This document shows, piece by piece, positions 8,582-59,857 of a stretch of DNA of 64,000 nucleotides. Every line of letters starts with the position of its first letter. The stretch's first letter is position 1. The DNA is taken from NCBI RefSeq assembly GCF_008831285.2, contig NC_045138.2:20584001-20648000 (forward strand), read 5' to 3'. This stretch comes from Nymphaea colorata. Taxonomy: Eukaryota. The notes below the pieces were generated by a model, which saw nothing but the letters and a program-made list of their open reading frames with translations, was not told the origin of the DNA and did not search any database. The position numbers and the translations under genes are program-made.

Positions 8582-8626
<45 letters not shown>

Positions 8627-8680
8627 GAAGAGAAAGATTCAACTAGAAAGGAGGGCATAATATAACTATGAAATAAATGA

Positions 8681-9660
8681 TCATCTCATCTTTCCATGCT
8701 CCCAGTGCACTTGAGCATAGCCTCTTGTCTCTAAAAAGAGATTGAGTGCTATCTCCTTTGGCCATGGGGAGATAAAGATGAGAAGAAAATAAAGAAATGA
8801 AAGCAATGCTGCATTCAATAAAAGGGAAAACATGATTCAATCGTGAAATGAAAGATTATCTCATCTTTCCATGCTCCCGGCGCACTTGAGCATAGCCTCT
8901 TGTCTCTAAAAAGAGGTTGAGTGCTATTTCCTTTGGCATGAAGATGAGAAGGGAAGATGAAAACAATAACAAGACTATGTTCAAGAAAAAGAAATAGCAT
9001 AATAATAACATATTAATGAAAAATAACAACAACAAAAATACTTGAAAGAGCATGATTTAATCATAAAACAAAATATCTTTTCATCTTCTTATGCTCTCGG
9101 TGCACTTGAGCATAGCCTCTTGTCTCTAAAAAGAGGTTGAGTGCTATCTCTTTTGGCCATGGAGAGATGAAGATGAGAAGAGAAAATGAAAACAATCAAC
9201 AAAACTATGTTCAAGAAAAAGGAATAGCATAATAATAAGAACATATTAATGAAAAATAACAACAACAAGAATATTTGAAAAAGTATGATTTAATCATAAA
9301 ATAAAATACCATATCATCTTTTCATGCTCCCGGTGTACTTGAACATAGCCTCTTGTCTCTAAAAAGATGTTAAGTGCTATCTCCTTTGGCCATGATGAGA
9401 TGAAGATGAGAAGAGAAAATGAAAACAATCAACAAGACTATGTTCAAGAAAAATGAATAGCATAATAATGAGAATATATTAATGAAAAATAACAACAACA
9501 AGAATACTTGAAAGAACATGATTTAATTATAAAATAAAATATCATCTCATCTTCTTATGTTCTCGGTACACTTGAGCATAGTCTCTTGTCTATAAAAAGA
9601 AGTTGAGTGTTATCTCCTTTGGCCATGGAGAGATCAAAATGAGAGAAAAATAAAGAAATG
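8681..9660. repeat. Five copies of a ~95-bp conserved core (GCACTTGAGCATAGCCTCTTGTCTCTAAAAAGAGGTTGAGTGCTATCTCCTTTGGCCATG) in ~180-235-bp tandem units inside the solo LTR
   Basis: Core copies start near 8685, 8862, 9082, 9315 and 9548. The A-rich intervening sequences are also related to each other. Confidence 0.9.
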
Positions 9661-9675
9661 AGATGATGATGATTA

Positions 9676-10081
9676 CATACCTCTAATAAGAAATGACCTA
9701 AGGAACATAAACACCTTCACTTGAAGATCACCTTGAAGCTCCAAGATGATGCCTCCAAGAGGATTGTAATAGCACTACAAAACAAATCTTATAATATATC
9801 AAAACATTTGCATGCATACATACATTCACTCACAAAACAATCATTCAATCACATCGCAATCCTAGGATCTCACAGTCATACCTCTAATAAGAAATGACCT
9901 AAGGAAGATAAACACCTTCACTTGAAGATCACATTGAAGCTCCAAGATGATGCCTCCAAGAAGATTGTAATAGCACTACAAAACAAATCTTATAATATAT
10001 CAAATCATTTGCATGCATACATACATTCACTCACAAAACAATCATTCAATCACATCGCAATCCTAGGATCCCACGGTCATA
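9676..10081. repeat. ~201-bp direct tandem duplication inside the solo LTR
   Basis: CATACCTCTAATAAGAAATGACC... starts at 9676 and again at 9877, with few mismatches. Confidence 0.9.
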
Positions 10082-11814: not shown

Positions 11815-13563
11815 CCACCCTAGTTGTTGCCTTGTAATTTTCTGCTGTTTGTTTTTCATGAAATAGAAAACCTTTTTACTCCTGATGGAAATTTACAGTC
11901 TTTCTTGCCTTTCCAATGGAACTCAAAATTCTTCATCTTCGCTAACTATACTTTAGCTTGTACTTGTACGTCATGTGAGCTCATTTTGCAATACAGAAGG
12001 TCGATGCTTTGGGAATTCAAAATGGAAATTGACTACCTACTAACTCGTGTCCCAACTGTTGTGCCAACCTTTTTAAAGATAATTTAGTATTCATCATAAA
12101 TCCAACCATATAGATGGATGCAAAGTATATGTTAAATTTTATATGATCAAAAAATCATAAAAGAAATAGATGTATAAAATAAATTTATAATGTTTTAAAG
12201 TTAACTCTTTCACTTTTCTTGACACATAAAATTCTTTATAAACATCTGAATTTTGTAACTTTTTAGATTTATATCTTCATATAATTTATATCTATCTATA
12301 TGGTTAGATTTACAAGAAAAAACTTATCGCACGCACACGCACCCGCACATACTGGATAAGAGGATACATGTTTGTGTGTGTGTGACCTGCTTATACATTT
12401 TATTTTCACATATTTAAGCCAAAGTGTCTTCTGTGTGTGTGTGTGTGTGACCTGTTTACACAATTATACATTTATATAAAGAGAAAAAACCCAAAGTGCG
12501 TTCCACTTAAAACAAACTCAGGCATACTTAATTTGCGTGTGTGTGCGTGCATGCACACGAGTGTGACCGGTCTACACGATTATCTAAAGCGACACAAGCC
12601 AAAGTATCTTCATTCAACTTAAAAGGACACATGCATACTTTGTGCGTGTGCGTGCACGCAACCTACTTATACATTTATATGAAGAGAGACAAAGCCAAAA
12701 TGACTACTTAAAACACACACACACGTATTTTATGTGTGTATGACATGCTTTTACATTTATATAAAGAGAGACAAGCCGATAAAGTGCGTCTTCATTTTTA
12801 GTTCTTGTGCACTCATATATTTGCCTTTGGAATATAACTTCTGTGAAGATGCCGAAAGTAGATGCTACCGCTAACAAAGAACCGACCAAACGCATGGAAA
12901 GGAAGTAAAGGTCTGAACACCTTTCTCACTTCTGTCTACTCTTTAACTCCCAAGTAACTTTGTCCCTCTCTTTGCTTCTCCATGCAGGTTTTGCTTATCA
13001 TATTTCATTCCTCTACTTTTTAAGTGCTACTTTATTCTCCACCCCTTTTCTGCTTTGGAGGATCTATAAAGTTGCTAAAAGAAGATGTTAGTCATCTTAC
13101 ATAATGAAATCGGAAATGATTGAGAAAGCAACTTCGTTTTTTAGAATTCTTGTGAAAGGTGTTTTGATTATGAGATCCATATGTTATATATCTTTTTTCT
13201 TTTTCATTAATCCCCTTATCTTAATGTGTTACATATTCATTTTTCTGATCATATATCAGCACTGAATGTTTTTCGCTTCCGTTTTTAGCTCACTTCTTTG
13301 GAGGAGATTCTATAACTCCACCTGAAAACTCAGTTAATAAACTCAGTGGAGCTGAATTGGTTCTATTAACATAGTCTTAATGAGAAATCAAGGATCTTTA
13401 AAACTTCAATAAACAAGGGAATATTTAAACAAGTTCTATAGAAATGAAGTGAAAATGAATGACTTGTAATATATAGGGTTCATTCAAACCTCCTCATATG
13501 TGCTTCTTGCTTAAATTATATCATGATTTTCACTAGAATTGGCAAATTAGAGGCACTTCAAAT

Positions 13564-13859
13564 TAAGGGTGGATGTTGGGCCGGGGTCGGGCTGGCCCGG
13601 CCTGATTGGGCCCGAGCCTAGGCCGGGAAAAACCTGGCCCGGGCCCAATAGGCCAGCCCAAGTCAGCCCGTTTAGATTAAAAAATATATATTTTTTTTGT
13701 TTTAATAATATATATTTATTATTAATAAATATATTTTATATTTAAAAAATTATTTTATAATTAAAAAATTATTTTTAAATTTTAAATGGGCCTGCCCCGA
13801 GCCGAGACCCGAGCTATCGGACCGGGCCCAGGCCCGACCCGGCCCAATGCCCACCCTTA
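13564..13859. mobile_element. hAT-type MITE
   Basis: TIRs TAAGGGTGG.../...CCACCCTTA, GGCCCG-rich subterminal repeats and an AT-rich core. 8-bp TSD CTTCAAAT (13556-13563) / CTTCAGAT (13860-13867), 7/8 match. Confidence 0.8.
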
Positions 13860-14002
13860 CTTCAGATTTAGACATCATAAACTTGGAGACTATCAGATTG
13901 GCATCTGTTCTCCCTAACGTCAAATCCACTTTGACCAAATTTGCTTCTTTGTTTTTCTTTTTTTTTTCATGGGTTTTTTTCTTTGGATACTTAATTATCC
14001 AC

Positions 14003-14166
14003 ATTTTTATCCATCATAAAAAACATATTAGAGTTTTTAACGGGGGCAATTTCTTTAGAGAAAGATCACCACTGCTCCTCAACTTTCTTTCTTCTACGAT
14101 TTTTCCATTCCCTTTATTTATCATCCTTTTTTTTACTCCATTTTCCTTAATTTCCATGGCATTGAA

Positions 14167-14264
<98 letters not shown>

Positions 14265-14755
14265 GTTTAATGAAACCCTTTTTGCTACGTCGTTCAATCC
14301 TATATTTGAGTAGAGGCAAAAGAAGAGCTCCCATGCACTATGAAAGCGAAGAAAGTAGGGAAATTTCTATTTTTCGTCTTACCTTTTACTTTTATAATTT
14401 CAAAAAATGAAGCACTGTTTATTATTCCCTAAAAGAGACAGTTTCCGTAAAGCTGTTAAAAAAGGGCCAACGTTGACTTTTTTTTTGTTAAAAAAAATAC
14501 AAACACGTAGGTTCGCTTTTCAAGTTTACAAAAATTCACTTCATGCCCTTATATGTTTCTCGCCTTTTTAGACAATATTGTGTACACTGCTGTTCGTGCA
14601 GATGGAGAAATTCATGTTAACCATTTCAAATTCAGATTTGATCAGTGACGTGTTTACTTAATTAGTTAGTTCCAAAAGGAACCGAGGTGCGTTTCTATCT
14701 TTATTTTTTCAAGAAAGACAAAACAAATCAACCTGGAATTCACTCTTCCCGACTC
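14003..14755. repeat. Left copy of a long direct duplication flanking the PIF/Harbinger element
   Basis: Near-identical to 21447-22164. The differences I could see are (CA)/(AT) microsatellite length and a 1-nt indel (CTACGTCGTTC vs CTACGTCTTC). Confidence 0.95.
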
Positions 14756-15297
14756 GGGCCCGTTTGATGGGCGGGTGAAATTTAACACGGTAAGTTTACC
14801 AAGGTAAATTTTTCTAGAAAAATTTAGTGGATGAAATTTTACCCTCTTCCAAAACGAGACCCTGTTTGATTGTCGGGTGAAATTTAACGTGGTAAATTTA
14901 ACCCAGTTTGATGAACATGAAGAATTTAACGTGGTAAATTTAACCCTGTTTGATGCACATGGAAAATTTAACATGGAAAATGTTGTTTTTTTTTTTTCCT
15001 TCCCAATTCCACTTTGGAAGGAGCAGAACCCATATATTTCTTCATCAATCATCCCAAAACAAATCACCATACAACCAGTTCATTAAAAGACACGGCCATT
15101 CACACGATATATATAACAAAAAGCAAAAAAAAATATCTAGCAACACATTACAACAGAAAACACCTTCTTAACTTAATTTATAACTGCAAAAGTTATATAT
15201 TTGTTCCCAAAAACATTAAACAGAAATTGTCCACAAAAGTAACATGAGTACGAATCCACAAAAGGGTGTACTTTCTACTAAGAAGAAAAAACAAAGT

Positions 15298-15624
15298 TCA
15301 ATGAGTACATATCCAACAAAGAAAACATGTAATCACAAAACAAGTAATCCAACATTTCTGGCTGCACTTTCGTTCTTCAAACTTCGTGTCTTCTATATCT
15401 TGCTTTGCGATGACATCTTCAATGAGTGGAGACCTGCTTGCTTGCACACCATACTTGTTCTGGAGATACTCATGCATGTGATTTTCTGCTACTTGTAATG
15501 AATTAAACGATCTGAAAACGGCACCCTTGTACCGATAGACTAATGGTTGGCACCGCTCCCAGCTGTCATATATGCCTCGCTCACGTCCTTCGAAAACCAC
15601 ATAGTACTTTTGGTGGGGCATCAT
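15298..15624 (-). CDS. 108-aa protein with an RNase H1 N-terminal hybrid-binding (Cauli_VI / L9-like) domain and a hydrophobic Cys-rich C-terminal tail; third ORF of the Harbinger element
   Basis: KYYVVFEGRERGIYDSWERCQPLVYRYKGAVFRSFNSLQVAENHM matches the HBD consensus (Y-V-x-x-GR-x-G-[IV]-Y-x-x-W-x-x-C-x-x-x-V...F-x-S-x-x-x-A). ORF is open from ATG 15624 to the stop at 15298. Confidence 0.8.
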   Translation of the reverse strand: MMPHQKYYVVFEGRERGIYDSWERCQPLVYRYKGAVFRSFNSLQVAENHMHEYLQNKYGVQASRSPLIEDVIAKQDIEDTKFEERKCSQKCWITCFVITCFLCWICTH

Positions 15625-17044
15625 TTTCGTTGTCCTGTTGAAAAGAAAACAAATGTCAGACAATCAAACTGAAGAAGTAGTCAACATTTATAAACAAACT
15701 TACTAGTCAATTGATAATCTGTAAACATTTGAGATGATATAGCTGCTCTCAAAGCATTGTTGCTTCCTCGCTGATGTGTTTGGCTTGCAATTTCAGGTTC
15801 GCTTAAGACGAAGTTATCAATCGAAGGTGCATCTTCATCATCAAATTGCTCGGCATTTGGATTGTGTTCAATTATGAAGTTGTGTAGTACACATGTAGCA
15901 AGAACAATTTGAGCTTGTTTTTGGAAAGGATACTGAACTTGCATTTTCAATATTGGAAAACGACCTTTCAACATGCCGAAAGTTCTTTCTACTGTATTTC
16001 GAAGTGATGAATGCCTATGGTTGAATAATTCTTCTTCTGTTCTAGGTGAACGTGCTCCCCGAGTGTTAAACTCAGACATATGATAACGATGTCCTCGATA
16101 AGGTGTAAGCAAACCAACAATGTTTGGATACCCCCCATCAGCCAGATAAAATTTGCCTACAATTGAACACAATTTATTTATACATTGATACATGCTTCTT
16201 AATAAAAGACTGAACTGGTTGGTGGAACTACGTACCTTCTGGGACAACAAATGGGTCTGTTTCATGATCTAGTGCATTGTACAATACTCTTGAGTCTGTT
16301 GCACTTCCTTCCCATCCAGCCAAAACGTAGTGGAATCTAGTATCTAGGCCGACTACAGCCATGACGTTTTGAGAAATGAAACCTTTTCTATTGCGAAACC
16401 TTGCTTGATCTGAAAAAGGAACCCAAGCCGGTATATGTGTGCCATCGATTGCTCCTAAACAATTCTATATGACAAGGCAACTAGTTAGTCATGTTGTAGT
16501 TTGTCATGTTGTATGTGTCATGTTGAGTTCAAGATGATGAAATTACCTCAAAATATGGAAAGAATCGTTTAGAATGTCGAATATGTGCTGGCATCATCTC
16601 ATCATTGGGCCGGCGAACGTAATCCTTACCCAGTATACATATCGCTCGTAGCACTAGGCTGACATATTTACTTATTGTTTGTCCGGAATGTTGAAACGTA
16701 TTTTGAACAGCACGATTCCGTTTATTATGTCCAATTGTCAAAAGCAATATAGCTACTTGTTCTTCTACAGTAATGTCACGAGCATCCTCCAACAAATTTC
16801 TATTCCTTAGAATGTTGCACAATCTCATATATGTATGTCCTTCCATACGGAGTAAGTCCAAACAATTTCTAGGATGACCACGAAGCATTAGTTGGACAAA
16901 AGATGTACCAGCATCTCGAAATGGATGAACAATCCTCCTAGACGATGGTCGGTCTTTCAACCAAAAGAAGATGAAGACAAAAACCATTCGAATGATGAAA
17001 AGCACTCGTTCATCGTCGTCATCGAACATGTCAAAATCAATCAT
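15621..17044 (-). CDS. PIF/Harbinger (HARBI1-like) DDE transposase; exons 17044-16547, 16464-16236, 16156-15704, 15634-15621 (unspliced alternative stop at 15681)
   Basis: GT-AG introns join in frame. Motifs: HTH region VEEQVAILLLTIGHN...FQHSGQTIS, NCLGAIDGTHI, GWEGSATDSRV, FYLADGGY, FNHRHSSLRNTVERTFGMLKGRF, LATCVLHNF. No internal stops found. Confidence 0.93.
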
Positions 17045-17220
17045 TTCGACTAAACTGCATATACATGTAAGGTACTTGAATAACAAAATCAATCATTTCA
17101 ACTAAACTGCATATACATGTAAGGTACTTGAATAACAAAATCAATCATTTCGACTAAACTGCATATACATGTAAGGTACTTGAATAACAAAATCAATCAT
17201 TTCGACTAACCTGCAAATAC
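17033..17220. repeat. 52-bp tandem repeat (three full copies plus a partial) spanning the transposase splice acceptor and start
   Basis: AAAATCAATCATTTCGACTAAACTGCATATACATGTAAGGTACTTGAATAAC starts at 17033, 17085 and 17137, with a partial copy at 17189. Confidence 0.95.
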
Positions 17221-17338
17221 ATTGCAGCAATTTCTCACTACATGGATGTTCATGGAATAAAAAGAAAAACACACAACAAATTGAACTTGTGCTAAATGAA
17301 ACATACAAATAATTAAACTAACAGACATGGAAACTTAC

Positions 17339-18295
17339 CTACAAATCACCAAGTCTACGCGACAACCATGTCAGCCGGTCTTCAGGTGGAACGTTGAGAA
17401 AGATCATGGAATTGGTTCCCTCTCCTAATAGGTCCAGACTCATCAGTCTCGTATGACTATCTAGTAGCCCTGTGTCCACCATCTCTTGTAAAATTTCACA
17501 ACATTTGACATATTGAAACCCTCTAGAAGTATGTGTGAGGGAATCCACATTTTTAGCTATACCGTTCAACAAATTGTAATACATGTCATCGTTGGTTGAC
17601 TTGTTCCGTTTTGACCTACGTGTACTTGTATTGGTTGTCGGATTCTCAGTTGTAGGAGTTGTAGGTAGTGGCGACTGTGTAAATGACTGTTCACTATCAG
17701 GCTGCATGTACGAAGGTGATGTCTGAGATGCAGGTGTACATGGGAGTGGTTCAGTCTCAGCTTCAAGCACGTTGTTTAATGTGACTGCGTTTTGCCCAGT
17801 TGCATGAGATTCGCCATATACCTCGGCGAACTCATCATAGTATCTCCAGACTTTTGGACCTCTGTACTTTTTCCTATTTGGATATTTCTGAAAAAATTCA
17901 TGTGTTCAAATATTGCAGAAGTAAATACATGTGAGACAAAACCTAACAATATTAATTTTATAATTTACCTCAATGTAGTCGTTCCATACTTGGGGGTCGA
18001 CCTCAATGCATTTGTTAATTGGGTCGTAGCCAAACCCACTTGTGTTCAACATTTCCTTCATCACTGTCAAGTTGGGTTTGGAATACTTCAATTTGTTTTT
18101 TATTTTGTCTTTCGTGAATTCTAGACCGAATCTATCCATCATTGCTTTTTCAATAGCTGTGTATGCTTTGGGCTTCAAACCTCCACCGGATTTCATGCCA
18201 GGGATGCGTGACTGCTCCACAAGAAGCTGGACTAAGTAATCCATTTGTGGTTCAGTCCACGTAAGATTTTCTCTTGAAGGACCGCTGTCTTCCAT
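17339..18295 (-). CDS. Myb/SANT-like DNA-binding protein (PIF ORF1, L10-interacting MYB-like); exons 18295-17969 and 17887-17339
   Basis: WTEPQMDYLVQLLVEQ...KAYTAIEKAMMDRFGLEFTKDKIKNKLK...SGFGYDP...WNDYIE|KYPNRKKYRGPKVWRYYDEFAEVYGESHATG, followed by an S/T/P-rich linker and a C-terminal ...IFLNVPPEDRLTWL. Phase-0 GT-AG intron. Confidence 0.92.
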
Positions 18296-21200
18296 GTTAA
18301 CGTTTTGTATAATAATTCTTCACAGTAACAGTAATATAAATCTAGCATGAAGAACATACGAGAAACAACGACAAAGGAGCATCAGAAACCATAAAAGCAT
18401 AAGTAGACCTTTCATACACAGAAAAGAAAGGACAAAAGACGTCAGCAATAAACTGCACTCTAAATCCAATGAAAGTGTTTTTGTGAGAACGATGAGCTAA
18501 TGCTATATGTTATGTTCCATCCATAGAAAAGATCATTACATGTTTTTCTTTCGTCAAAAACATATAAGAGAACAATAACTGAGAATAGAACAATAAGAGA
18601 TGGTGACACAGTTTAAATATAAATGTGACCATAGTAAATCTAAAATCTGAACAAAACAAAGCTGTGAAAATAGAAAACACATCTAAATTCCAATAAAATA
18701 TATAACACATCTAAATGTCAATAAAAAAATATATAACACATCTAAATGTCAAATAAAATATATAAGGAACAACGATTAGATGCCACCAACTATAAGTTAA
18801 GCTAAAGCACTTTCATGTCTCCAAGGAGGGGGGGGGGGGCATGCAGGTGAAGGTGAAGCTAGACGAGGCTGAAAAGCATGTTCATATCTGTATTCTCAAA
18901 TTCTAATTGCTAGTGAATCCATGTGAATGAAAAATGTCCTTCCTTTAAGTAGATTTCAGTCAAATTTCCTCAAAATGATTCAAATATCATGGCTGTTTCT
19001 ACTATTGTTGGGCCCATAAATGTCTCTTATACTTGTTCTTTTGGTTAACCTTCCTTTCGAGAAATGAAGTTTCTATCATCCAGTAATTACCATTCATGTT
19101 CTTATTTACTCACCCTGTTACAGGGACAGGAATTGGACCCAGTGACTGCATTAACTGTGTAATGCTATTTGATAGCAGGTGCTTTCTTATTTTTGTTAAT
19201 ACGCACACACACACATGCATACGGAATTGTGTATCAAATGGATTTAGTTCCAATTGGACCCAGTGACTGCATTAACTGAGTAATGCTATTTGATAGCAGG
19301 TGCTTCCAATGACAAAGTATATTGATACGATTTTCATTTTCAAAAACAAGGAGCCAACATAAAATATTTATGTTTTTTAGTTTATAAGTCATATTAAAGA
19401 AGTTTTTGTTCTCCCTTTTTTGGCTTATAAAATGTCAACTGAACAAGAAGGACCTTCCGTTAATTATTAAACTTCTAGACGTGGACAAGTTTCAACTATA
19501 AGAGCTTTTGTGTAAACTCATATTTCACCAAACTGTCTAAAATAGACAAGTCTTCAGCTTATTTAATAAATTTAACTTCTGTCTTCAAGAAATGAAGATT
19601 GGGAAAAAGTGTATAAAGCAGGAATTGCTCCAAAGTCTCTAAGGTGAATTGACCAACAAAATGTACCCATTTTAGAACAGTATGTTGTTAACTGTCTGCT
19701 CATTGGGTAGACTAAAAAAACAATCTTTTCGTAACTTTACATCATAACTTTACAGGTAAAATAGATCTACTCTTAATTTCAAGAAATATTCAAACCCCAT
19801 TCGACTCAAAAGGCTAGGCAGAGTGCCTGGTGACTTGGTGTGGATTGGCTTACAGGTTACTGTGAACAGGACGCTGAGGTCCCACGTTTTTCACATCAAG
19901 CTGTTTGAGTGAGAGCACTTGCTCACAGCCAAATCTTGTGGGTCCTGCAGCCACATGGAACTTGCACCAATTTGTCAAGGCCAATTATATGGCTGGAACC
20001 AGGACCATGAGCTTCCTCTCCCAGACCAGTCCAACAGAACCTACAACTTCATAGCAGGTGTGGATACATTCACAACCACTTAACTATGAAAAGAAAAGCA
20101 TTTGGTTTTGGTAGCCCACAACTTCACCAAATCATTGATGACTAAACAAAGGCGTCAACAGCATAAGAAATTGAACACAGAGAGAGAGAGCAACTTCACC
20201 AAATAATTGAATGCCTAAACAAATGCATCAGCAACAAAAGAAATATGATATTGGATGTAGCAAAGACGAGAGAAAGAGGGAGCAGAGCAGAAGAAGAACA
20301 GTTTATGCTCCTTTTGTCTTTGCATGGAACTGGGAACCACAAGAGAGTCATCCTATTTGACTTTGTAAAACAGGTAAAGGACACACCAAACTCACGGGCG
20401 GCCATTTTTGAAAGAAATATTTGAGCATCTTCCCTTTCTGCGTCTCTTGACAGTCCCAGATAGACAACCCATTATAAGTTATAAGGCACTGTGGTACTCT
20501 TAATGTTGGTCTTTCACAAAAGAACTTGAGAAGGCAGGACAGGAACTCCAGGAACAGAGATCGATTACTCATTTGTCAGATAGGTTCCTGTACAGGCAAC
20601 TTGCGTCGCTGAAATCTAAGCCCCGTTTCTATCTAAGCACCCAAAGGCCGTAATAAGGGATAACATAATGAAACTCAGAGAAAAGAACGGCGATACTGAT
20701 AACGAGATAAGGTTAAGGCAACCATTTCTATGCCTCCAGGGGCTAAGAGAAAAGAACGGCGATACTGTAGGCGATCATCTGCTTTATCAAGATAAAATTC
20801 ATGCGAAAGAAACAGCACAGAGAAAGGGGGGAAATGTGGGCAGCTAGCGACGGGGAGAGAGAGAGAGAGAGAGTGACAGAGAGATATACCGGCAGAAAAA
20901 TGTCCGACGCCGGCCGCTTGAGGGTGTTGCGACGGTCGACTGTGAAACCCTGACAGTGAGAAGGAACGAGGGAGGAAAAAAATTGGGGCATTAGTCTACG
21001 CGAAAAAAATGGGGGCATTTGAGGGTGCTACCCAGCACAGAGAAAGGGGGGAAATCTGGTGAAGAAAGGTAAGAAATGTGGGCAGCTAGCGACAGAGAGA
21101 GAGAAAGAGAGAGAGAGAGCGACAGAGAGATATACCGGCAGAAAAACCTCCGACGCCGGCCGCTTGAGGGTCTTGCGACGATCGACGGTGAGACCTGGCA

Positions 21201-21333
21201 GTGAGAAGGCACGAGGGAGGAGGAGTTGCGGAGGGAGGTCGAGCGTTGCGGAGGGACTTCGAGCGCTGCGGAGGGAGGTCGAGCGTTGCGGAGGGACTTC
21301 GAGCGCGGCAGCAGAAAAGCATTGATGGGTATA

Positions 21334-21365
21334 TTTCGAGCGGGTGAAATTTCACCCGCTCGAAA
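21334..21365. repeat. Perfect 32-bp palindrome in the right subterminal region of the Harbinger element
   Basis: TTTCGAGCGGGTGAAA|TTTCACCCGCTCGAAA; each arm contains the inner TIR motif GCGGGTGAAA. Confidence 0.95.
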
Positions 21366-21446
21366 GTCCGAGCTCGGTGAAATTTCACCCGCCCGTACAA
21401 ATTTTTCCTCCCCCGCCCACTTTCACCTGCCCATCAAACGGGGGCA

Positions 21447-21610
21447 ATTTTTATCCATCATAAAAAACATATTAGAGTTTTTAACGGGGGCAATTTCTTT
21501 AGAGAAAGATCACCACTGCTCCTCAACTTTCTTTCTTCTACGATTTTTCCATTCCCTTTATTTATCATCCTTTTTTTTACTCCATTTTCCTTAATTTCCA
21601 TGGCATTGAA

Positions 21611-21674
<64 letters not shown>

Positions 21675-22164
21675 GTTTAATGAAACCCTTTTTGCTACGT
21701 CTTCAATCCTATATTTGAGTAGAGGCAAAAGAAGAGCTCCCATGCACTATGAAAGCGAAGAAAGTAGGGAAATTTCTATTTTTCGTCTTACCTTTTACTT
21801 TTATAATTTCAAAAAATGAAGCACTGTTTATTATTCCCTAAAAGAGACAGTTTCCGTAAAGCTGTTAAAAAAGGGCCAACGTTGACTTTTTTTTTGTTAA
21901 AAAAAATACAAACACGTAGGTTCGCTTTTCAAGTTTACAAAAATTCACTTCATGCCCTTATATGTTTCTCGCCTTTTTAGACAATATTGTGTACACTGCT
22001 GTTCGTGCAGATGGAGAAATTCATGTTAACCATTTCAAATTCAGATTTGATCAGTGACGTGTTTACTTAATTAGTTAGTTCCAAAAGGAACCGAGGTGCG
22101 TTTCTATCTTTATTTTTTCAAGAAAGACAAAACAAATCAACCTGGAATTCACTCTTCCCGACTC
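21447..22164. repeat. Right copy of the long direct duplication flanking the PIF/Harbinger element
   Basis: Matches 14003-14755 from ATTTTTATCCATC to CTTCCCGACTC. Confidence 0.95.
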
Positions 22165-22552: not shown

Positions 22553-25503
22553 ATGAGGCGCTCTCATCTGCTGCCAATTGTGAGGTGCGTGGCAGCAGTA
22601 ACGCTCCTCTCTTGCTGCTGCTGCTGCCTGGCTGCGGAAGGCGGCAGTGAGGTGGATGGTAGCTCACTTCTCCTCCAAAGCCACCTCCGAAAGTCCACTG
22701 TCATCTTCCCCATGAACGGCAGCGTCTATCCTGATGGGTGGGTATTAAGATACTCTCTCTCTCTCATTCACGCACGCACACAGACACAGGCTTATGGATG
22801 ATGACGAATCATAGTCTAAATGGGTAAAATCGAAAAACAAATCAAATTACAGTTATTCGACATGTTTTATTGATTTTATGTGGCTTGTCTGGTTGAATCC
22901 TCAAAATTACCTCAACAAATGGTGGAAAATCGCATCCCATCAAGGGAGACTCTGCCGGATTCACGGTGACCAAGTCAATTTGAATCTCTTGGATTAGGGC
23001 CAACACGACTCTGGTTTCTTGCAGTTTTCAGTTTTGAAATCCCATCTGTGAATAAACAGTACCATGAGAAGATGGGGAGGCTTATTTCTGCGCTTGCCCG
23101 CAAGTTTTGATGTTACCTAAGAATTTCACGGCGAAGCCTGCCATCCGAGCGTCTAAGATCACCACCTTTCTTCATTTGCCATGCTAAAATGAATCTCTAA
23201 TATTCCCCAACTCTGGCCCCTGTTCAACTGAAATGAACCGAATCAGAGTGAAGATCGTGTTTAAGAAATGACCCGAATATCATCATGATCGTCTCAATGA
23301 ATAGCTGGTGTTCTGCAGGCTTTTCTATGTAACTATGTGGATTGGCAAGCCTCCCAAACCATACTTCCTTGATGTGGACACAGGGAGTGACCTTACTTGG
23401 CTCCAATGTGATGCCCCCTGCATTAGTTGCTCTCAGGTAATAAAAAATGGCAACTGTTGAGCAAAGCTATGATGATTTCTGTTATAATCTGCTTTTCGTT
23501 CTTTTGGTTTGTCTGTATTTACCGATGGCATCCATCTTGTAAACGCTTGTAGGGAGCGCACCCTCTCTACAAACCAAAGAAGACCAACTTGGTTCCTTGT
23601 GGGGATCCGCAATGCATTTCTTTGGGTTCACTAAGGGAGTATGAATGTGAAAAGCCAGACCAGCAATGCGACTATTTGATTGAATATGCAGATCGCAGTT
23701 CGTCACTCGGTGTCATTGTGAAGGAAACCTTCTACCTTCGTTCTGCAAGTGGTACCCTGCTTCGTCCTTCTCTTTCATTCGGGTAAGTCGCCATGCTTTG
23801 AAAGGATGGATGGATGCATATTGCTGGATGTTCATGATAAAACTGCTTCTCATAATTCATATCCGGTTCGCTATTGTTTGCAGTTGTGGATATGATCAAC
23901 GAGGCTCCTTAGCGAATCTTCAATCTGCTGCTGATGGCATACTCGGCCTTGGCAGTGGGAAACCGAGCATTGTTTCTCAGTTGAAGGATCATGGAATTGC
24001 CACAAATGTGATTGGCCATTGTATCAGTCCACAGGGAAAAGTAGGGTACCTTTTCTTTGGCGATGATCTTGTACCTTCTACTAAAAGTGCTACATGGATT
24101 GCAATGCACAGCCATCCATCAGGGTAATTAGCTCTCCACATATTCTCTTCCTAGAGAGTCTATGGTTTCAAATCCTTTTATCTCTTCTCTTCGTTTACAT
24201 TGTTGCTCTTACTTGAACCTTAAGTATTTTAAAGAAAGTAGCTGTTGTCGTACCATATTTTGTTGGTTTAATGCATTCAGTATATGTTGCCTCACATGTC
24301 AATTTGCCTAAAATTTTGTTTACATATGAAGAGAAAAAATATGGTGCTTCTAGCCTATTGAAATCCCTTTTCTAAGGCGCTGGTGTGCCAACCATGCAAT
24401 CAGACACCTAGGTTCCTGGTCTTGTACCTTAGTTATAAGCATGGATGTTTCCCTTTGCTAATGAATTACAGAATGCAGTGAAAGTAGAACTTTTTTTGTG
24501 GCTAAACCTTGGGCTTCATATGTTCAGGAAATACTCCCCTGGACCTGCAGACCTGGTTTTAGGCAAGCAGCGGATTAAAGATCTTATGGTCATCTTTGAT
24601 AGTGGCAGCTCATACACTTACTTCACTTCCCGTGTATATGAGGTGCTGCTCTCAGAGGTCAGTTCAAATGAAACAGGTGGAAGGAAAGCCTTTCTAGTTA
24701 TACTATTCCATCTCCTTGACAAAGCACCTCATTTCTGTGTTCTCAGATAAGCAAAGATCTTTCAGGAAAGCCCATCAAGAAAACGAGAGAGGATATAGCA
24801 CTGCCCTTGTGCTGGCAAGGTCCAAAGGCATTCACTTCTTTTTCTGAAGTCAACAATTACTTCAAGCAAATGGTTCTGGAATTCAAGAACAGCAAGAAAG
24901 CTAAGCTTACAATGTCGCCAGAAAATTATTTGATCATCACTGTATGTGTCTCCATCACATGAGTTCCTATCCTGATCCTTTTACTGCTTTTTTAAGTTTT
25001 AGAAAGGGAAAAACAAAAAAGTGACACTGAATTTTCTTCAGGCACAGGGAAATGTATGCTTGGGCATCCTGAATGGAACTGAGGTAGACCTTGGCGACCT
25101 GAATCTTATTGGAGGTAATAATGGTTGAAATGAACTGCACTTGACATTGTCACAAGTGATGAATCTAAACTGCGAGAATTGATCTTCTTTTGGCCTCTGT
25201 TCTCAGACATCTCGATGCAATCACATGTGATCGTGTATGACAACGAGAATCATCAGATTGGCTGGGCGCCTGCAAACTGCAACAGGCTTCCAATGTTCGA
25301 AGCACATTCTTTGTGAACTTAGTTTCTTATTTTTGCAAGGTTAGTAATTAGCTAACTATGAACAGATATCTCTGACCTCTTTTCTTCTGCACAGTTTTGA
25401 TGGTGCCACTCAGTTTTCATCCCAGTGTCATGGCGCAGATGTCCCAGCGAACGAGTTCAAGCAGTGTCCTGCTGCTTACCTGAAACCAGCTGAGTCTGGC
25501 TGA
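22553..25503 (+). CDS. Aspartic proteinase Asp1/nucellin-like (A1 family), copy 1; exons 22553-22737, 23319-23436, 23553-23782, 23884-24123, 24528-24657, 24747-24941, 25042-25114, 25207-25294, 25395-25503 (stop at 25316 if the last intron is retained)
   Basis: Signal-peptide-like N-terminus, GSVYPDG, catalytic LDVDTGSDLTWLQCDAPC and IFDSGSSYTY, DGILGLG, NVIGHC, NVCLGILNG, YDNE..QIGW.PANC. GT-AG junctions keep the frame. Confidence 0.92.
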
Positions 25504-25784: not shown

Positions 25785-25856
<72 letters not shown>

Positions 25857-25885: not shown

Positions 25886-26184
25886 ATATTGCTTAACCAA
25901 ATTCTCACGGTTTACCGTTTACCCATAATATTTACATATTCAATATTTACCCCTTAGGGGACAGACAAAATTCCCTTTTTGCCCTCATGCTTAATAGGTA
26001 CAGTCTTGCATTTAGATACAATTTCCATATGCAAATCCATATTGCTTAACCAAATTTTCAGGGTTTACCCATAATATTTACATATTCAAGATTTGCCCCT
26101 TAGGGGACAGACAAAATTCCCTTTTTGCCCTCATGCATAATAGGTACAGTCTTGCATTTAGATACATTTTCCATATGCAAATCC
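25886..26184. repeat. ~150-bp tandem duplication
   Basis: ATATTGCTTAACCAAATT...TAGGGGACAGACAAAATTCC...CATATGCAAATCC starts at 25886 and 26039. Confidence 0.9.
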
Positions 26185-27879
26185 CTATTCCCATGCTAAT
26201 CAGACCTTTCGGAGAGGGGAAGAGAAAAATATTTCCAGATAGAACCTAGAGACAGTAAAGGGAAAACATGAGCCAAAAATTAGTGTTACATATATAGAGA
26301 GCCAATATAAGGCAACTGTGAGATGAAATTGCTGTTTTATTTCGTTTACAACACGAAGAAGTTTATAATGGTTTTCTTTAATTAAAAGTTGTACATAAAA
26401 AGGAGTTTACAGAATCTTATTGATCTTTGACTCGTGAGCTTCTACAGAGCGCTTCTATTCATCTGGCTCTCGCCTATTTCTAATGAATTTTGATCATCGG
26501 AGGGATGCTGCACAGAGCAAGGAGCTGAACCAATATGAACAGAAACATACCAAACAACCTTTACATGCCATCATTCTTGCCGCACCATGCAAGCACGAAT
26601 GTCTGAAGTTCAAATAGGCATATCTGCTGGACTGTGGCCAGAACTGTCTGCTCGACTTAGTTTTAGCTGAGGTCCAGTCTTTTTTCTCCTAAAAAATCAA
26701 AAAACGATCAAAAACTTGAACATCATTATGAGCAGCAGTAGAATATCTTGGGTATTTTCCTTTTTACACTAAGTGGGCATTTGGTAACAGGAATACTGCT
26801 TTCTTTGAAACAAGATGTGTGTTAGCATAACAGATTACATTCACAAGACAACAGATTACATTCGCAAGACAGAGAAGACCCATTTTTTACATACGAAGCT
26901 TTCTTTTTAGATTCAATTCATTTATCCTTACATTTGAAACTCTCATTTTAGGGCCAATTCATTTTGTTTTAGTTTTCAATACCAAACAAACCCACTTTCC
27001 TGATTTTGGTGTCTTTCTTTTTATGATTCAATGCTTATGGAATTCAAATTTTGTTTCTAACTAATAAAAATTAAGGTTTTTCTTCAATAAAACACAATTT
27101 CATCTCATAGAGCACAAAGTTACTTAGGCAAAGATTTTGTTGCAACATGAATGCATATAAGTGTAGTTTATGACTCAATGTTACATAATTGATGCTCCAT
27201 CAATAGACTACATGTTTCCTGTGCACGAATTGTTGGAAAATTAGTGTTTGTGATGCTATGCGCAGATCCAAATTTTACTACAAATAAGAGAGAATATTTC
27301 ACTATGTGAAAAGGAAGAAAATATTTGAATTTATGTTATGAAGCTCATAATTTATTAGCTTAGTACTCTTAAATGCAAATTTTGCTAAGCTAAGACATGG
27401 TAATAAATGAAGTCACTACAATTTTATGTCTATATAGGGGTAGTTTGGCGACAGTGACATTCACAAAGTGTTTCTCCTACCAAACAACCCCATAAGGAAT
27501 AAGAATGCCTCGATGCACATAAGAAACACATTATGTTGATTAAAATGTTATAGTTGCATTTGCCATTTGAACGAATCACTTTATTTAAGAACTTAAGTTA
27601 GGAATAACCAACGGACATGTTTAAATTCATCATGATAATTAGGTAACAATTAGTTTAATTTAATGAATATTAAATCTCATACTTGAAAGAGCAAATAAGA
27701 TAGGAGCAAAAGGCAAGATGGAAGCCAAACATGACGATGGATAAGATCTGATGACGGCAATTTCTATCTAGGAAACCTCCTGTGGCCAGATCATGGGTTG
27801 ATAAGTGTAGATCGGAAAACTAGGAATGGGAAGATCTTGCATATTTGATGTTTGTTCAGGTGGAGGGGAATGACCGAGA

Positions 27880-31850: not shown

Positions 31851-34800
31851 TGTAAGATCATTTGGTGGGCCGACATATGTCTATGAGGAATTTCAGACAT
31901 TATAGATGTCTTAAAATAAATATCCGCTTAAGTGATTGCATTTTGGGATATTATGTCATTTTAGATGATATGGGGTAATTTTGAAATGTATAGATACCAG
32001 TACGCAATTATGGACTCTTTGATGGGCGGAATTCGTAATTGTCCTCATTATAAAATGGTAGTGGTCCCTAGGGTCGTGCAATGGTTGCCTGAAACGTTGG
32101 TTTCTAGGGTTTTCCTCTTTCCCATCTGAGAGAGACCTCAAGCGCGCCGCACGTACCCTGGAAGACTCTACTTCGATCTTCCCGTGCACCAGTTCAGATG
32201 GATTCAGGTATACTTTCGCTTCAGTTTAAGGTTTTGTTTATTTCAATGATTTAGCATGAGCATGATCCTGTTTTAGGGTATATACGTTTGGTTTTGTATA
32301 TGCATGAAGGGGAGAAATCCCTACAATTGGTATTAGAGCCTATGCTCATTGTTGAATCGTTGATCTTTTGGATGATTTTTTTTCGGGCTTCCGCTACAGT
32401 CGCCTGAGACACAGGGAAGTATGGCGAAGGGACGGCCAAGCAACCGTCGCCGGAAGGCAAACAGCCGTTTGCCGGCCGTCCTGGCGCGACCCGCCGCCGG
32501 CCCGTCGGTGGTTCCCCTGCGTCTGTCGCAGCCACTCAAGAGGAAGAAAAGGGAAAAGGGGCAGATTTGAAATCAAGGGGAAACCGGCCAGAATCGGCCT
32601 GTTTCCGGCGGGCGTCGGCCCGCCATCGTGGCGGCCGACGTCCGGCGACGCTGGCGGCACCCGCCGGCGGCCACCCACGGTGTTGGGTGGCCTGCCGGTG
32701 GAGCTTCACCGCCCGCCTGCCGTTCGGCAGGCGAGCGGTGGAGGCAACGCCCGCGATCGCTCACGCGGGCAGGCGGACCGGGTCGGGTCTTGCAGACTCG
32801 ATCCGGATCCATCAGATTTAAAAAAAAAATATTCATTTTGCCGCCCGCCCGCGCCTCTGTATCCATGCGGTTTAAGTTTTTTTGAGAAACGGTTCATCCT
32901 TGTCAAACCGGTTCTGAAAAGAGTCAAACGGGTTCATTCGGTTACAGAACGATTCAACTCGATTCAGAACCGGTTCAGACCTTTTAGGGACCGGTTCGGA
33001 CCTTTTGGGGGCCGATTCGGATCATTTTGGGTCCGGCTCATTAAGTTTAAATCCGATTCAGACAGTTTCGAACCTTTTGGAGACCGGTTCATTCAGTTTT
33101 GGAGCCGATTCGGTCCATTTTCGGACCGGTTCAGTTATTTTTCAGTCGATTCAGTTGATTTTCAAACTGATTCAGGGCTTTTCAGACCGGTTTATTCAGT
33201 TTTAGAACCGATTTTAGCCATTTATTAACCGATTCAGTGGGTTTTTTTGAACCGATACGGTCTATTTTTTGACCGGTTCGTCCAATTTTTAGACCGGTTC
33301 AGCCCTATTTAGGGGCACGTGGGTGTTCTAGTTGTGGTTTAAGAACGATAAGGGCCACTTTAAGGCCGATTTAGTGGTTCTTGACCCACTTAAGTACAAT
33401 TATGGTATCGGTTTATAAAATTTTGGACTCTTTTGGGCCCATATCATTGAACCATTTGGTTTTGAATTCAATATAAGACAATTTTGTATGTGTCACATCA
33501 TTGAATCATTTGGTTTTGGATTTAATGTAGAGCAAATTTGTATGTAAATTTTAATTCATGTATCATGTTTTGCATGTTTTAAATTTGTGGGTGTACTTTA
33601 AATGAATGTTTGGATTATGAATTTGATCTTTGGCCATGTCTGTTGTTTAAAATGAGTAAGTTTGTATTTTATGTCGCCAAAATGACCTCTGTTGTACGAA
33701 TTTGCCTGTTTTGAACATTAGATGATAGTATACTTGATCCATGCGGGCAATGATCAACCCAAAGGAGGATTGTTGTTTGGTCAGGTTTAAGTATACAGGG
33801 CAATGAATATGTGATAATTTTTCATGTTTTCATGTAAATAGCGAGTCAATCCAAAGATAGGCTCGTTGTTTGACAGGGTTAATTATCTATATTCATTGTT
33901 GACCAAAAATACCACTTGCAGTTAGTATTTCAATCCCAAGATTGGATATTAACGTTGCACCGATACCTTGTGATGGGATTTAGGCCATTGTACCTTGTGA
34001 TGGGATTTAGGCCATTGTATTTAAATTCATTTATATTTGCTATTTCATTTTTGTACATGTTTTGATTGTGAGCATGTTTGGTATTTTTGTTCTTTGTACA
34101 GTGAGTTCTGCTTTCATGATATCTGTAAATTTGAGTACTGTTCCTCAGTTAAATGGTTCGAATTTTAAGGACTGGAAAGAAACTGTTATGATTGTTCTAG
34201 GTTATATGGATTTAGACCTTGCATTTAGGGAGTTATGCCTACCTCATCCAACAGATCAAAGTTCCCATGAAGATAAGCGGTACTTTGAACGGTGGGAACG
34301 CTCAAACCGCATGTGTCTAATGATCATGAAGAGATCAATCCTAGAAAATTTTAAGAGCTCTATTATTGAAAAGGCTAGTGCCAAGGCGTTCCTTAAAGAG
34401 ATTAAAAAACGTTTTGCTAAAAATGAAAAGGCTGAAACAAGCACTCTTTTGAGTAAACTTGTGACGCTGAAGTATAAAAGTAAGGGGAACATACGGATGC
34501 ACATTATGGAAATGTCTCATCTTGCTTCAAAATTACAGGGGCTAGGTCTGTGGTTATCTGAAGACTTTATAGTGCATATGGTTCTTCTTTCTCTTCCACC
34601 ACAGTTTGGACAGTTTAAAGTTAGTTATAACTGTCAGAATGAGAAATGAGCTCTTAATGAGCTCATTTTGCACTGTGTGGAAGAAGATGAGAGATTGAAG
34701 CATGATAGGATAGAAAGTGCTCACTTGGCTACTACGCCTGAAAGTAAGAAAAAGAATGCTATTAAGGAAGTTGCAGTTGATCATGCATCCATCAAGAAAC

Positions 34801-37641
34801 AAAAGAAACATAAGGAAGACAAATCAAGCTGCTTCTTTTGTAAGGATGAAGGTCATATAAAGAAGGATTGTACTAAGTATCACGCATGGCGTGAAAAGAA
34901 AGGTACGATTTTTACTTTGGTTTGTTCTGAGGTTAATTTAATTTCAGTAACAAGGCACTTGTGGGTAGATTCAGTTGCTACTACTCACATAAGTGTTTCC
35001 GTGCATGGCTGCCTAAATTGTCGGACGCCAATTGCTGCTGAAAGATTCATCTATGAGGGCGATGACATGAAGGCGAAGATTGAAGCCATAGCAGATTTTT
35101 GAGTTATTGTTAAAGACTGGTTGTTATTTGAATTTGATAGAAACTTATGTAATACCGCCTTTTAGACGGAATTTGGTTGTTATTTTCTTACTGAACAAAT
35201 TTGGTTATTATTGTTTATTTGGAGGAAGTAAATTTACGTTGTTTCTGCACTCAAATTTGATTGCCAGTGGTTCTTTGTCTAGTAGCGATAACCTTTATTT
35301 GCTTGATACGGTTGCTTCATATAATGAAACCTTGCGTGTTACGTTTAGTGGTACTAAAAGAAAATTAGTCAAAGAGAATTCTGCTATGTTATGGCATTGG
35401 CGCTTAGGACATATCTTTGAAAATAGAATATAAAGGCTTATGTCAAAAAGAATTCTTGAGTTCCTTGATTTTGCAGACTTTAATGTTTGCATTGAATGCA
35501 TAAAGGGAAAATGAACAAACATTATGGGGTTATAAGTTTTTATAATTCATCCAGTAAGTTTTTCTTTTAAACGGCAAACACTCATTTCTTTGAGGATATT
35601 GAGTTTGGGAGGTGATCAGGTTATGAACATTGCCTTTGAATAGGGACCTGAGTCCACTCTATTCAGAAGAAGGCAATGATGTCGATCTCCATACTGAAGA
35701 ACAAACTCAACAACCTCAAGAAAATTAAGTTGAAGTGTCACTAAGGAAATCCATATATGGACTAAAGCACGTTTTGCAGTCATTACAAACTTCATCAAGT
35801 TATAGTTTCATTTGGTTTCGAAACTAATATGGTTGATGAATGTGTATACCAAAAGTTCAGTAGGGGCAAATTTATCTTTCTGGTTTTATATGTCATTGAT
35901 ATATTGCTAGCAAGTAATGATGTAGGCATATTGCATGAAACTAAGAATTTCTTGTCAACAAAGTTTGACATGAAGGATCTTGGTTGTGCATCTTTTGTAT
36001 TAGGGATCCAAATATTTCGAGATCGTTTTCGGGGTATTCTTTGGATTATCACAAAAGGCCTACATTAATAAGGTGTTTCACTGATATGACATGAAAAGTT
36101 GTAAACCAGAAAATACTCCACTTACTAAAGGAGACAAGTTTAGTCTCAAACAGTGCCCTAAAAGTGAAATCGAATCTAAGGAAATTGAAAGGATTCCCTA
36201 TTCGTCTGTTGTGGGAAGCCTTATGTATGCTCAGGTTTGTACTCGTTTGGATATTGCATTTATCATCAGAATGTTAGGCAGATACTTAAGTGATCCTGGT
36301 ATGGATCATTGGGAAGCAGCCAAAAGGGTATTGAGGTACTTACAAAGAACAAAATGTTTTATGCTCACATACAAGAAGTCAGACCAGTAGGAAATCATTG
36401 GGTATTCAAATTCTGACTTTACTGGGTGCCAAGACAGTAGCATAGCATGTTACGAGGCATCCAATCAAGTTTTATAATTGCGGAATTTTGTCACGGGGCT
36501 GCGCATTATGTATAGTGTAGAAAGACCACTAAGGTTATTGTGTGACAATAATTTAGCAGTCATGTACTTTAATAACAGCCACAGTTTGTCAAAGTCGAAA
36601 CATTAAGTTTTTGGGTTGTTAAAGAGATGATACAGAATGGTCAGGTGTTTAGAGCATATTGGGACAAACTCCATGATTACGGATCTGTTTACCAAGGGTT
36701 TAACACATAAGGTCTTTCATGAAAATGTTGTTCGTATGGGGGTGTTATCCTTGGACGATGTGCAGGTTTAGTAGGAGTTTGTATTTTGTTTGCTCTTATG
36801 TATGGACACATATTCAGTTTTCTGCAGAATAAAATTTAAAGTTCTTTGGTTCCATTCTGTGTTTATGTTTTGATCTCCATAAGGTTTTAAAGTTGGACCA
36901 GTTGAAAATAGACATATTGTAATCACATTACATGTAATTCTCATGCTATACATCCATATCAGATCTATGTCATTGATTGTGTTAACATTTATGATCATTG
37001 AAGGTTTAGCTAATTTTAGTATAGCGAAAGTCGCGTTGGTTCTGTGTTGATATGGTCATGGACGAGATTGGTGAAAATGACATTTTAATAAGATAGCAAT
37101 TATGAGCTCCTAAGGTTTTGTGTAATGTCTGAATGTATAAAGTCATATTTGGTCCAAGTGGGAGATTGTAAGATCATTTGGTGGGCCGACATATGTCTAT
37201 GAAGAATTTTAGACATTATGACTGTTTTAAAATAAATATCCGCTTAAGTGATTGCATTTTGGGATATTACGTCATTTTAGATGGTATGGGGTAATTTTGA
37301 AATGTATAGATAACAGTACGTAATTACGGACTCTTTGATGGGTGGAATTCGTAATTGTCCTCATTATAAAATGGTAGTGGTCCATGGGGTCGTGCAATGG
37401 TTGCCTGAAACGTTGGTTTTTAGGGTTTTCCTCTTCTCCATCTGAGAGAGACCTCAAGCGCGCCGCACGTACCCTAGAAGACTCTACTGCGATCTTCCTG
37501 TGCACCAGTTCAAATGCATTTAGGTACGCTTCCACTTTAGTTTAAAGTTTTGTTTATTTCAATAATTTAGCATGAGCATGATCCTGTTTTAAGATATATA
37601 TATTTGGTTTTGTATATGGAAGAAAGGGAGAAATCCCTACA
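31851..37641 (+). mobile_element. Ty1/Copia LTR retrotransposon, internally deleted and non-autonomous
   Basis: 5' LTR 31851-32325 and 3' LTR 37167-37641 (475 bp, TG...CA). PBS TGGTATTAGAGCC (32328-32340, tRNA-iMet type), PPT AAGTGGGAGA, TSD GAACC/AAACC. Gag (WERSNRMCLMIMK, zinc knuckle CFFCKDEGHIKKDC), protease (WVDSVATTH), GAG-pre-integrase (LWHWRLGH), RT (LVLYVIDIL, YSSVVGSLMYAQVCTR) and RNase H remnants. Integrase core missing; stops and frameshifts. Confidence 0.95.
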
Positions 37642-38059
37642 AAACCATCACAGGGATGCGCCTAGACCCCCGGCCATCTTTTGGGACAAATGAAACCATA
37701 GTTCAATCTGCTTGTGTTTAAGGAGGAAGTTTAAGAAAACGATGTTCCCTATGCCAGCAGCTTGCGTTGGAAAGGGCAAATATGATGATTAAATACTTTT
37801 ATATACATAAAATAATCGAAAGAATCAATCCTACAACTTAAATGATAGATCGTAAAGAATCAATCTAAATGATAGATCGTTCTTTATAAAATATTTAAAG
37901 AAAGAGCTGTCTTTATTCATGTCTGTTTTTGGATTTTGAAACACCCATGATTTGACAGAGGAAGCTTACGAAAACACAAAAGGCTTATCAAGAATTTTCC
38001 CTTTACAAACCCACCATTCAACTACGGTACCCTTGCCCTCTCTTGCTCGCTTCCTGTAA

Positions 38060-59593: not shown

Positions 59594-59857
59594 AATAAAG
59601 GACACCTTAGCAAGCCAACAAAAGAAGACTATACACGGGAATCTGCAATTGCAGGTTATGCCAAGGAAGGAACTAAACTCTTATTAAGAAACAACAGGAA
59701 CTTGTAGTTTAGATTTTAGAGTACAATAAAGGACACCTTAGCAAGCCAACAAAAGAAGACTATACACGGGAATCTGCAATTGCAGGTTATGCCAAGGAAG
59801 GAACTAAACTCTTATTAACAAACAACAGGAACTTGTAGTTTAGATTTTAGAGTACAA
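59594..59857. repeat. 131-bp near-perfect tandem duplication in a kinesin intron
   Basis: AATAAAGGACACCTTAGCAAG...TTTTAGAGTAC starts at 59594 and 59725; one substitution seen. Confidence 0.95.

Follow-up and report, generated by a model that had tools for sequence, protein, structure and literature searches.

A PIF/Harbinger transposon between 0.72-kb direct repeats in Nymphaea colorata, a candidate scar of one-ended insertion finished by host repair

One-ended integration of human immunodeficiency virus (HIV) or avian sarcoma-leukosis virus (ASLV), in which host enzymes insert the second end, leaves repeats 'hundreds or thousands of bp long' (PMC5041404; statements taken from this and the other cited articles refer to parts of those articles). 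DNA transposon insertions in rice are generally precise (PMC4423477), and target-site duplications (TSDs) were present in 119 of the 122 resolved somatic insertions in Arabidopsis (PMC12312487); an event that departs from this pattern is therefore rare. Here we describe one in a 64,000-nt stretch of Nymphaea colorata DNA (the window: RefSeq assembly GCF_008831285.2, contig NC_045138.2, positions 20,584,001 to 20,648,000 of the forward strand; coordinates below count from its first letter), where a 6,687-nt PIF/Harbinger element at 14756-21442, its genes on the minus strand, lies between two near-identical copies of a 0.72-kb host segment. In our judgement the observation is most likely real and represents one irregular insertion, clearly resolved. 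We propose, at a probability of about 0.52, that the element is the scar of a one-ended insertion at an off-consensus site, completed by polymerase-theta-type host repair that copied the 0.72 kb.

The duplicated host segment occupies 14003-14755 to the left of the element (copy A1, 753 nt, plus strand) and 21447-22164 to its right (copy A2, 718 nt, plus strand). The first-pass annotation had placed a near-identical pair at these positions, and end-to-end alignment of the two copies (BLAST E 0.0) bore this out, as it did the claim that A1 ends exactly at the left terminal inverted repeat (TIR), the final base of A1 directly preceding the TIR start at 14756. Because the E value is 0.0, a near-identical 0.72-kb pair abutting both ends of the element is far beyond chance. 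Outside a microsatellite the copies show 0 substitutions in 657 bases, and all differences between them are differences of length, namely (CA)3(TA)45 at 14168-14263 in A1 vs (CA)5(TA)26 at 21612-21673 in A2, plus one extra G at about 14292 in A1. These length differences could reflect slippage, haplotype differences or consensus errors and were not used for dating. The lack of substitutions sets an upper bound of 0.46% on divergence which, at rates of 1.3e-8 to 2e-9 that we assumed, would place the duplication at roughly less than 0.2-1.1 million years of age, in agreement with the recent origin already ascribed to it. A reading of A1 and A2 as long terminal repeats (LTRs) was considered and rejected: the copies begin ATTTT and finish GACTC, without TG...CA termini, their outer flanks are unequal (CCAC vs TTCT) with no short TSD outside the repeats, and in a relative (run X7, below) the unit appears to be host DNA present once.

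The two ends of the element are asymmetric. At the left, the TIR (14756-14780, plus strand) is complete to its first base and leads into subterminal 42-nt repeats that continue to about 14981, and the junction has neither TTA nor TAA and is free of filler, base loss and microhomology. The right TIR (21421-21442, plus strand) matches the left at 21 of 22 bases and stops at 21442, with the terminal 3 bases of the family end gone, after which a 4-nt filler (21443-21446, plus strand), identical to 14045-14048 and 21489-21492, precedes A2. The coordinates first given for A2 hold, but A2 does not follow an intact right TIR directly: the TIR is clipped and the filler lies between the two. The junction flanks read CTC at the left and GGCA/ATT at the right, so that neither offers TAA or TTA, as had been stated, and the description of the event as non-canonical stands on this lack of a TWA flank (TTA or TAA). 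Canonical insertion would leave intact TIRs and identical TWA flanks, and this copy has neither. Measured from the left breakpoint, the nearest TTA/TAA starts 13 bases to the right; measured from the other, it starts 8 bases to the left or 4 to the right.

The bases missing from the right end could be read from other copies of the family. Public contigs, all of them short, were compared in six of 20 listed runs (X1-X4 for the left junction; X1, X2, X6 and X7 for the right). Right-end contigs of other copies (n = 18, in 4/4 runs: X1 5, X2 7, X6 1, X7 5) match up to 21442 and from there read, by consensus, CCC followed by TTA or TAA; the X6 contig reads CCT and then TTA, one X1 end among those listed reads GGGGCC, and a single family-end flank among the listed contigs reads TCA in place of TTA/TAA. 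Because the family contigs continue in this way, the family end is by consensus an exact inversion of the left TIR; judged from its right-end flanks, the family makes normal TWA sites. We also considered the right TIR as an intact variant ending GGGGGC, and rejected this since no transposon-end contig extends past 21443; among the 92 records examined, no transposon-end contig reaches the 21444-21451 bin.

The right junction has a match nearby in the host DNA. Its 14 nt (6 from the TIR, 4 of filler and the first 4 of A2) occur in the window only at 14039, 21437 and 21483, that is, at the junction itself and at a site within the duplicated unit (14039-14052, second copy 21483-21496, plus strand), which can be divided into 6-nt microhomology, 4-nt filler and 4-nt microhomology. 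The site begins 36 bases into the unit, so that the junction sequence recurs 46 bases away. A comparable repeat within 100 bases was found at 227 of 55,671 unmasked window positions (0.4%) when microsatellites, tandem repeats and element termini were masked; a first, unmasked background (76 of 3,000 random positions, 2.5%) was too high because it included microsatellites and tandem repeats. Filler copied from the flank of the break is a hallmark of end joining that polymerase theta mediates (TMEJ) in Arabidopsis (PMC10923293, PMC13031928). Read from its sequence, the right junction appears to be the footprint of microhomology priming, short extension, release and re-priming, with polymerase theta itself as the presumed enzyme.

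The putative course of events begins with the transposase joining the left end at an off-consensus CTC|TTC (22164|22165 in empty-site terms) and leaving the right end unjoined. The right end would then have lost its last 3 bases, a loss evident from the sequence and the family contigs. In the next step, of which the footprint is visible and polymerase theta the probable agent, the free 3' end would have paired through 6 bases with the site 36 bases into the future unit, been extended by 8 bases, been released and re-paired through the last 4 of these at the start of the unit, a pattern that corresponds to the templated-insertion footprint of TMEJ. In the last step the 0.72 kb would have been copied and the gap closed, either by synthesis running to the first joint or by the filling of a long stagger, producing the giant equivalent of a TSD. 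Once it has paired at 14003, the free 3' strand of the right end is directed towards the left joint, and for this reason a duplication rather than a deletion is expected. The asymmetry of the ends supports this scheme, the left TIR being complete and free of filler and microhomology and the right TIR clipped. Further features of one-ended integration are found at the locus: an exact end opposite a truncated one with short homology to the appended host DNA, and a large direct host duplication on the side that polarity predicts, at a site which, judging by one X7 contig, is single-copy when empty. Break repair with long synthesis was among the candidates of the first-pass annotation, which had missed the templated filler; it fits the locus, and the filler supports it.

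The X7 contig comes from an organism about 7% diverged from the window here (11 differences in 160 bases). This 7,823-nt contig covers 21447-21605. Ahead of that stretch it carries the unique flank that lies upstream in the window, equal to 13973-14002 save for a T-run, and it extends at least 3.4 kb to each side. One listed X7 contig runs into a family end and breaks off some 66 bases within it, so the 7,823-nt contig most likely does not traverse the element. From the length and loose end of the 7,823-nt contig, the duplicated unit appears to be single-copy in the relative, which would make it an empty site. A 4,108-nt contig of run X1 has 477 letters on the tail of the unit and 3,631 more beyond it, ending by arithmetic at about 25791-25795, in the next TA tract; it fits an empty allele and equally the A2 side of a filled one. 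It was not counted as proof of an empty site because the join of the unit to its downstream DNA also exists in the filled allele. Two contigs of X2 that end at 14755 represent equal-length allele pairs and were judged uninformative, and X1, X2 and X6 have no contig covering 21447-21610, contigs showing presence and not absence.

Several points weigh against a one-ended insertion completed by repair. The right junction is bridged in 0/4 runs (X1, X2, X6, X7) and the left by none among the pieces listed for X1-X4. The assembly is the sole witness to the filled allele, because no examined run showed it and the contigs are short only, and what we describe is one event in one assembly. The left target, CTC, agrees with TWA at 1 of 3 bases, though the family is strict about TWA, and the clean left joint may be a blunt ligation; we treat a transposase-made left joint as conjectural because CTC is off TWA and blunt ligation gives an identical sequence. 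An X1 contig that lacks the extra G, as A2 does, would make A1 the changed copy, which conflicts with the proposed repair because copying in its simplest form would make A2 the new one; the G difference may equally be a consensus error. The filler, at just 4 nt, is under the size of 6 nt from which fillers are reliably mapped in PMC10923293, and the case therefore rests on the 14-nt match including its flanks.

Neither breakpoint being a TWA site would also agree with passive capture, in which the transposase acts in excision only and the excised element is patched into an unrelated break already under repair as a tandem duplication, one end having over-extended on the sister chromatid, with the left end blunt-ligated and the right closed by TMEJ. 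End joining captures excised mPing in Cas9 breaks, mostly as full-length copies that lack a TSD but usually retain flanking TTA/TAA (PMC11254759), none of which is left here; the cut lies exactly on the first base of the TIR, so exact loss of the TWA overhang would be needed. In worms and in Arabidopsis, over-extension followed by TMEJ yields tandem duplications (PMC13031629, PMC13031928), and the long (TA)n tract in the unit would make a plausible fragile site, whereas the tandem duplications of the mutants described in the cited parts of those articles are about 25 kb and larger. Passive capture also needs two rare events together, and we consider it unlikely, though still a serious competitor. 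An assembly artefact, a false duplication produced by merging two haplotypes or a chimeric read, would account for the presence of the filled allele in no independent run examined and for A1 and A2 differing in length only. Merging haplotypes cannot, however, invent a clipped end with templated filler, and both junctions must derive from molecules, so that each of two haplotypes would have to carry an abnormal insertion of its own; the best run holds just 0.63 of the window's words, and its contigs attest presence rather than absence. We regard this explanation as improbable.

Alternative transposition (as hybrid element insertion or of the sister-chromatid or reversed-ends type), or unequal exchange between two insertions 0.73 kb apart, with later damage to the junctions, could likewise leave a transposon where two direct repeats meet, and natural cases of 116-1,262 bp are described in maize (PMC3744419). 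A TTA 8 bases to the left of the right breakpoint would permit an 11-base loss with filler from a normal junction, and the microsatellite make-up of A1 and A2 differs, as two haplotypes might. In the maize cases, however, the junctions made by the transposase persist and the first repeat opens with a second element or end (PMC3744419), whereas no second TIR or subterminal motif of the family occurs in the 64-kb window, and 14002|14003 is without a footprint and matches the X7 contig of the relative. Neither junction has a TWA, the right one is repaired, and separate secondary damage would be needed at both, including the loss of 16 bases at the left with the TIR untouched. Alternative (sister-chromatid) transposition and recombination between two insertions had both been named as candidates in the first-pass annotation; each predicted intact termini with TWA-type flanks at the two junctions, or a second element end nearby, and none of these is present. 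Of the explanations weighed, these routes seem to us the least probable.

The genes of the element are in keeping with its placement in the superfamily. PIF/Harbinger TIRs begin GG(G/C)CC (PMC4423477, Table 1) and the left TIR begins GGGCCC; on comparison with the Harbinger features in PMC9179366, we found a DDE_Tnp_4 transposase, a Myb/SANT-like second open reading frame (ORF), the GG(G/C)CC TIR start and, in the family, TTA/TAA TSDs. The DDE transposase (15681-17044, minus strand) has exons predicted by script (17044-16547, 16464-16236 and 16156-15681), which encode 400 amino acids without a stop and include D173, D249 and E299; DDE_Tnp_4 (Pfam PF13359) matched on two of the exons. Between D249 and E299 lie 49 residues, close to the PIF value for the spacing of the second D and the E, which is near 47-48 in PIF vs 35 in Pong. 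The Myb/SANT-like protein (17339-18295, minus strand; predicted exons 18295-17969 and 17887-17339) has 291 amino acids without a stop and matches Myb_DNA-bind_3 (PF12776, E 7.5e-16). Because both frames are open under the predicted splicing, the element may be autonomous in coding terms.

A third ORF of 104 amino acids (15298-15612, minus strand) carries an RNase H1 N-terminal (Cauli_VI) domain (E 4.9e-17). Deep family cover in 4/4 runs indicates that it belongs to the whole family and not to this copy only, and its homologues (61-92% identity) carry Nymphaea names in 7 of 7 cases; on these grounds we suggest that it is a lineage-specific extra gene of this Harbinger family. A limited literature search found no report of an RNase H1 N-terminal ORF in plant Harbinger elements, and the third ORF is possibly more novel than the duplication. 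Its domain, of a type that binds RNA:DNA hybrids, could affect targeting. The interior at 19.4-19.9 kb showed no long open frame in the six frames examined, and the element has internal tandem repeats of 52 and 40 nt. The family is present at high copy, with summed contig depth over its genes in the hundreds to thousands vs about 40-46 for single-copy DNA (run X1). Runs X1 and X2 also contain a deletion derivative of the family in which 16184 is joined to 18130 with a 20-nt filler, a non-autonomous relative that an intact copy could mobilise.

The insertion lies upstream of a host gene of aspartic-protease type (22553-25291, plus strand; TAXi_N domain, E 2.3e-13; start codon and extent approximate). 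A2 spans 1,106 to 389 bases upstream of the likely start codon, and the DNA farther upstream has been displaced by 7.4 kb. This gene forms a paralogue pair with a second at about 44500-48174, some 22.9 kb apart and 67-76% identical in aligned blocks. A MITE-like element of about 300 nt (MITE stands for miniature inverted-repeat transposable element; 13563-13862), with inverted ends and an AT-rich core, lies 140 bases upstream of A1 and is unrelated to the TIR of the large element. Several near-perfect tandem duplications with units of 131-233 nt (8604-10081, 25917-26189 and 59594-59857) show that short tandem duplication is common in this region. Elsewhere in the window are a copia-type LTR retrotransposon at 31851-37642 (476-nt LTRs with 37 mismatches, a primer-binding site, gag and zinc-knuckle domains, and stops), a second copia-type gag-pol frame at 61249-62871 (plus strand, 540 amino acids open), and an intronless 306-amino-acid gene at 38060-38980 (plus strand) with RpiB/LacAB and cupin domains, which we take to be DRT102-like.

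One-ended insertion completed by repair would have consequences for the element and its surroundings. Altering the TWA that flanks mPing inhibits excision (PMC4561436), and because the present element has no TWA and a clipped TIR, it is predicted to be locked in place, normal excision being impossible. It may nonetheless be a source of transposase, and it would be lost without trace if the 0.72-kb repeats recombined. If real, the locus documents a failed cut-and-paste step in nature with unusual clarity, both joints being accounted for base by base, and shows how a transposon can duplicate promoter DNA (0.7 kb) in the absence of a partner element; copies with such long duplications would escape annotation that relies on TSDs. 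We also considered a broader, rather improbable extension, that PIF/Harbinger transposases regularly commit one end off-consensus and leave polymerase theta to finish, giving plants a hidden class of copies with kilobase-scale 'TSDs'. Were this class to exist, its members would be locked-in sources of transposase that duplicate promoter DNA and vanish without a footprint by recombination between repeats. As a single event of a known accident type, the insertion leaves the mechanism of PIF/Harbinger transposition unchanged, and its value depends on recurrence.

No report of a long duplication flanking a PIF/Harbinger element came up in the literature search, which is weak evidence, most subscription journals lying outside the search. 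In transposase-assisted target-site integration (TATSI), where mPing/Pong is caught in Cas9 breaks, elements of the same superfamily are near full-length, end-joined and without a TSD, with re-excision predicted to be impossible, as here; the TATSI junctions differ in having small deletions and usually TTA/TAA remnants, and the cited part of the article reports no long flanking duplication (PMC11254759). Ac/Ds reversed-ends transposition and P-element hybrid element insertion likewise place a transposon precisely where the two units of a tandem direct duplication meet (116-1,262 bp in natural cases), but they need two nearby elements or a resident one and their transposase-made junctions keep TSD relations (PMC3744419), whereas the present locus has no second end, no TWA and one repaired junction. 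Polymerase-theta tandem duplications and T-DNA capture in Arabidopsis share with it microhomology and flank-copied filler, and T-DNA capture in addition has one end joined by TMEJ and the other blunt (PMC13031928, PMC13031629, PMC10923293); the Arabidopsis duplications are much larger and, in the parts of these articles cited, have no transposon in their junctions, and T-DNA is a different substrate.

Retroviral one-ended integration, seen with HIV-1 under suboptimal integrase inhibitor or weak integrase and with ASLV carrying one mutant end, resembles the locus in having one normal end and another that is often truncated, in priming on nearby host DNA by short homology and in a long duplication that replaces the TSD (PMC5041404). 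The retroviral events were experimentally forced in cells and used a retroviral integrase (PMC5041404), whereas here a plant cut-and-paste element is found in its natural setting, with its clean end at an off-consensus target where joining by the enzyme is a proposal. If real, the insertion links a plant DNA transposon to the route of one-ended integration plus repair established in retroviruses. Accidents of this type have been described for retroviruses and, through different routes, for Ac/Ds and P elements, and do not amount to a new mode of transposition.

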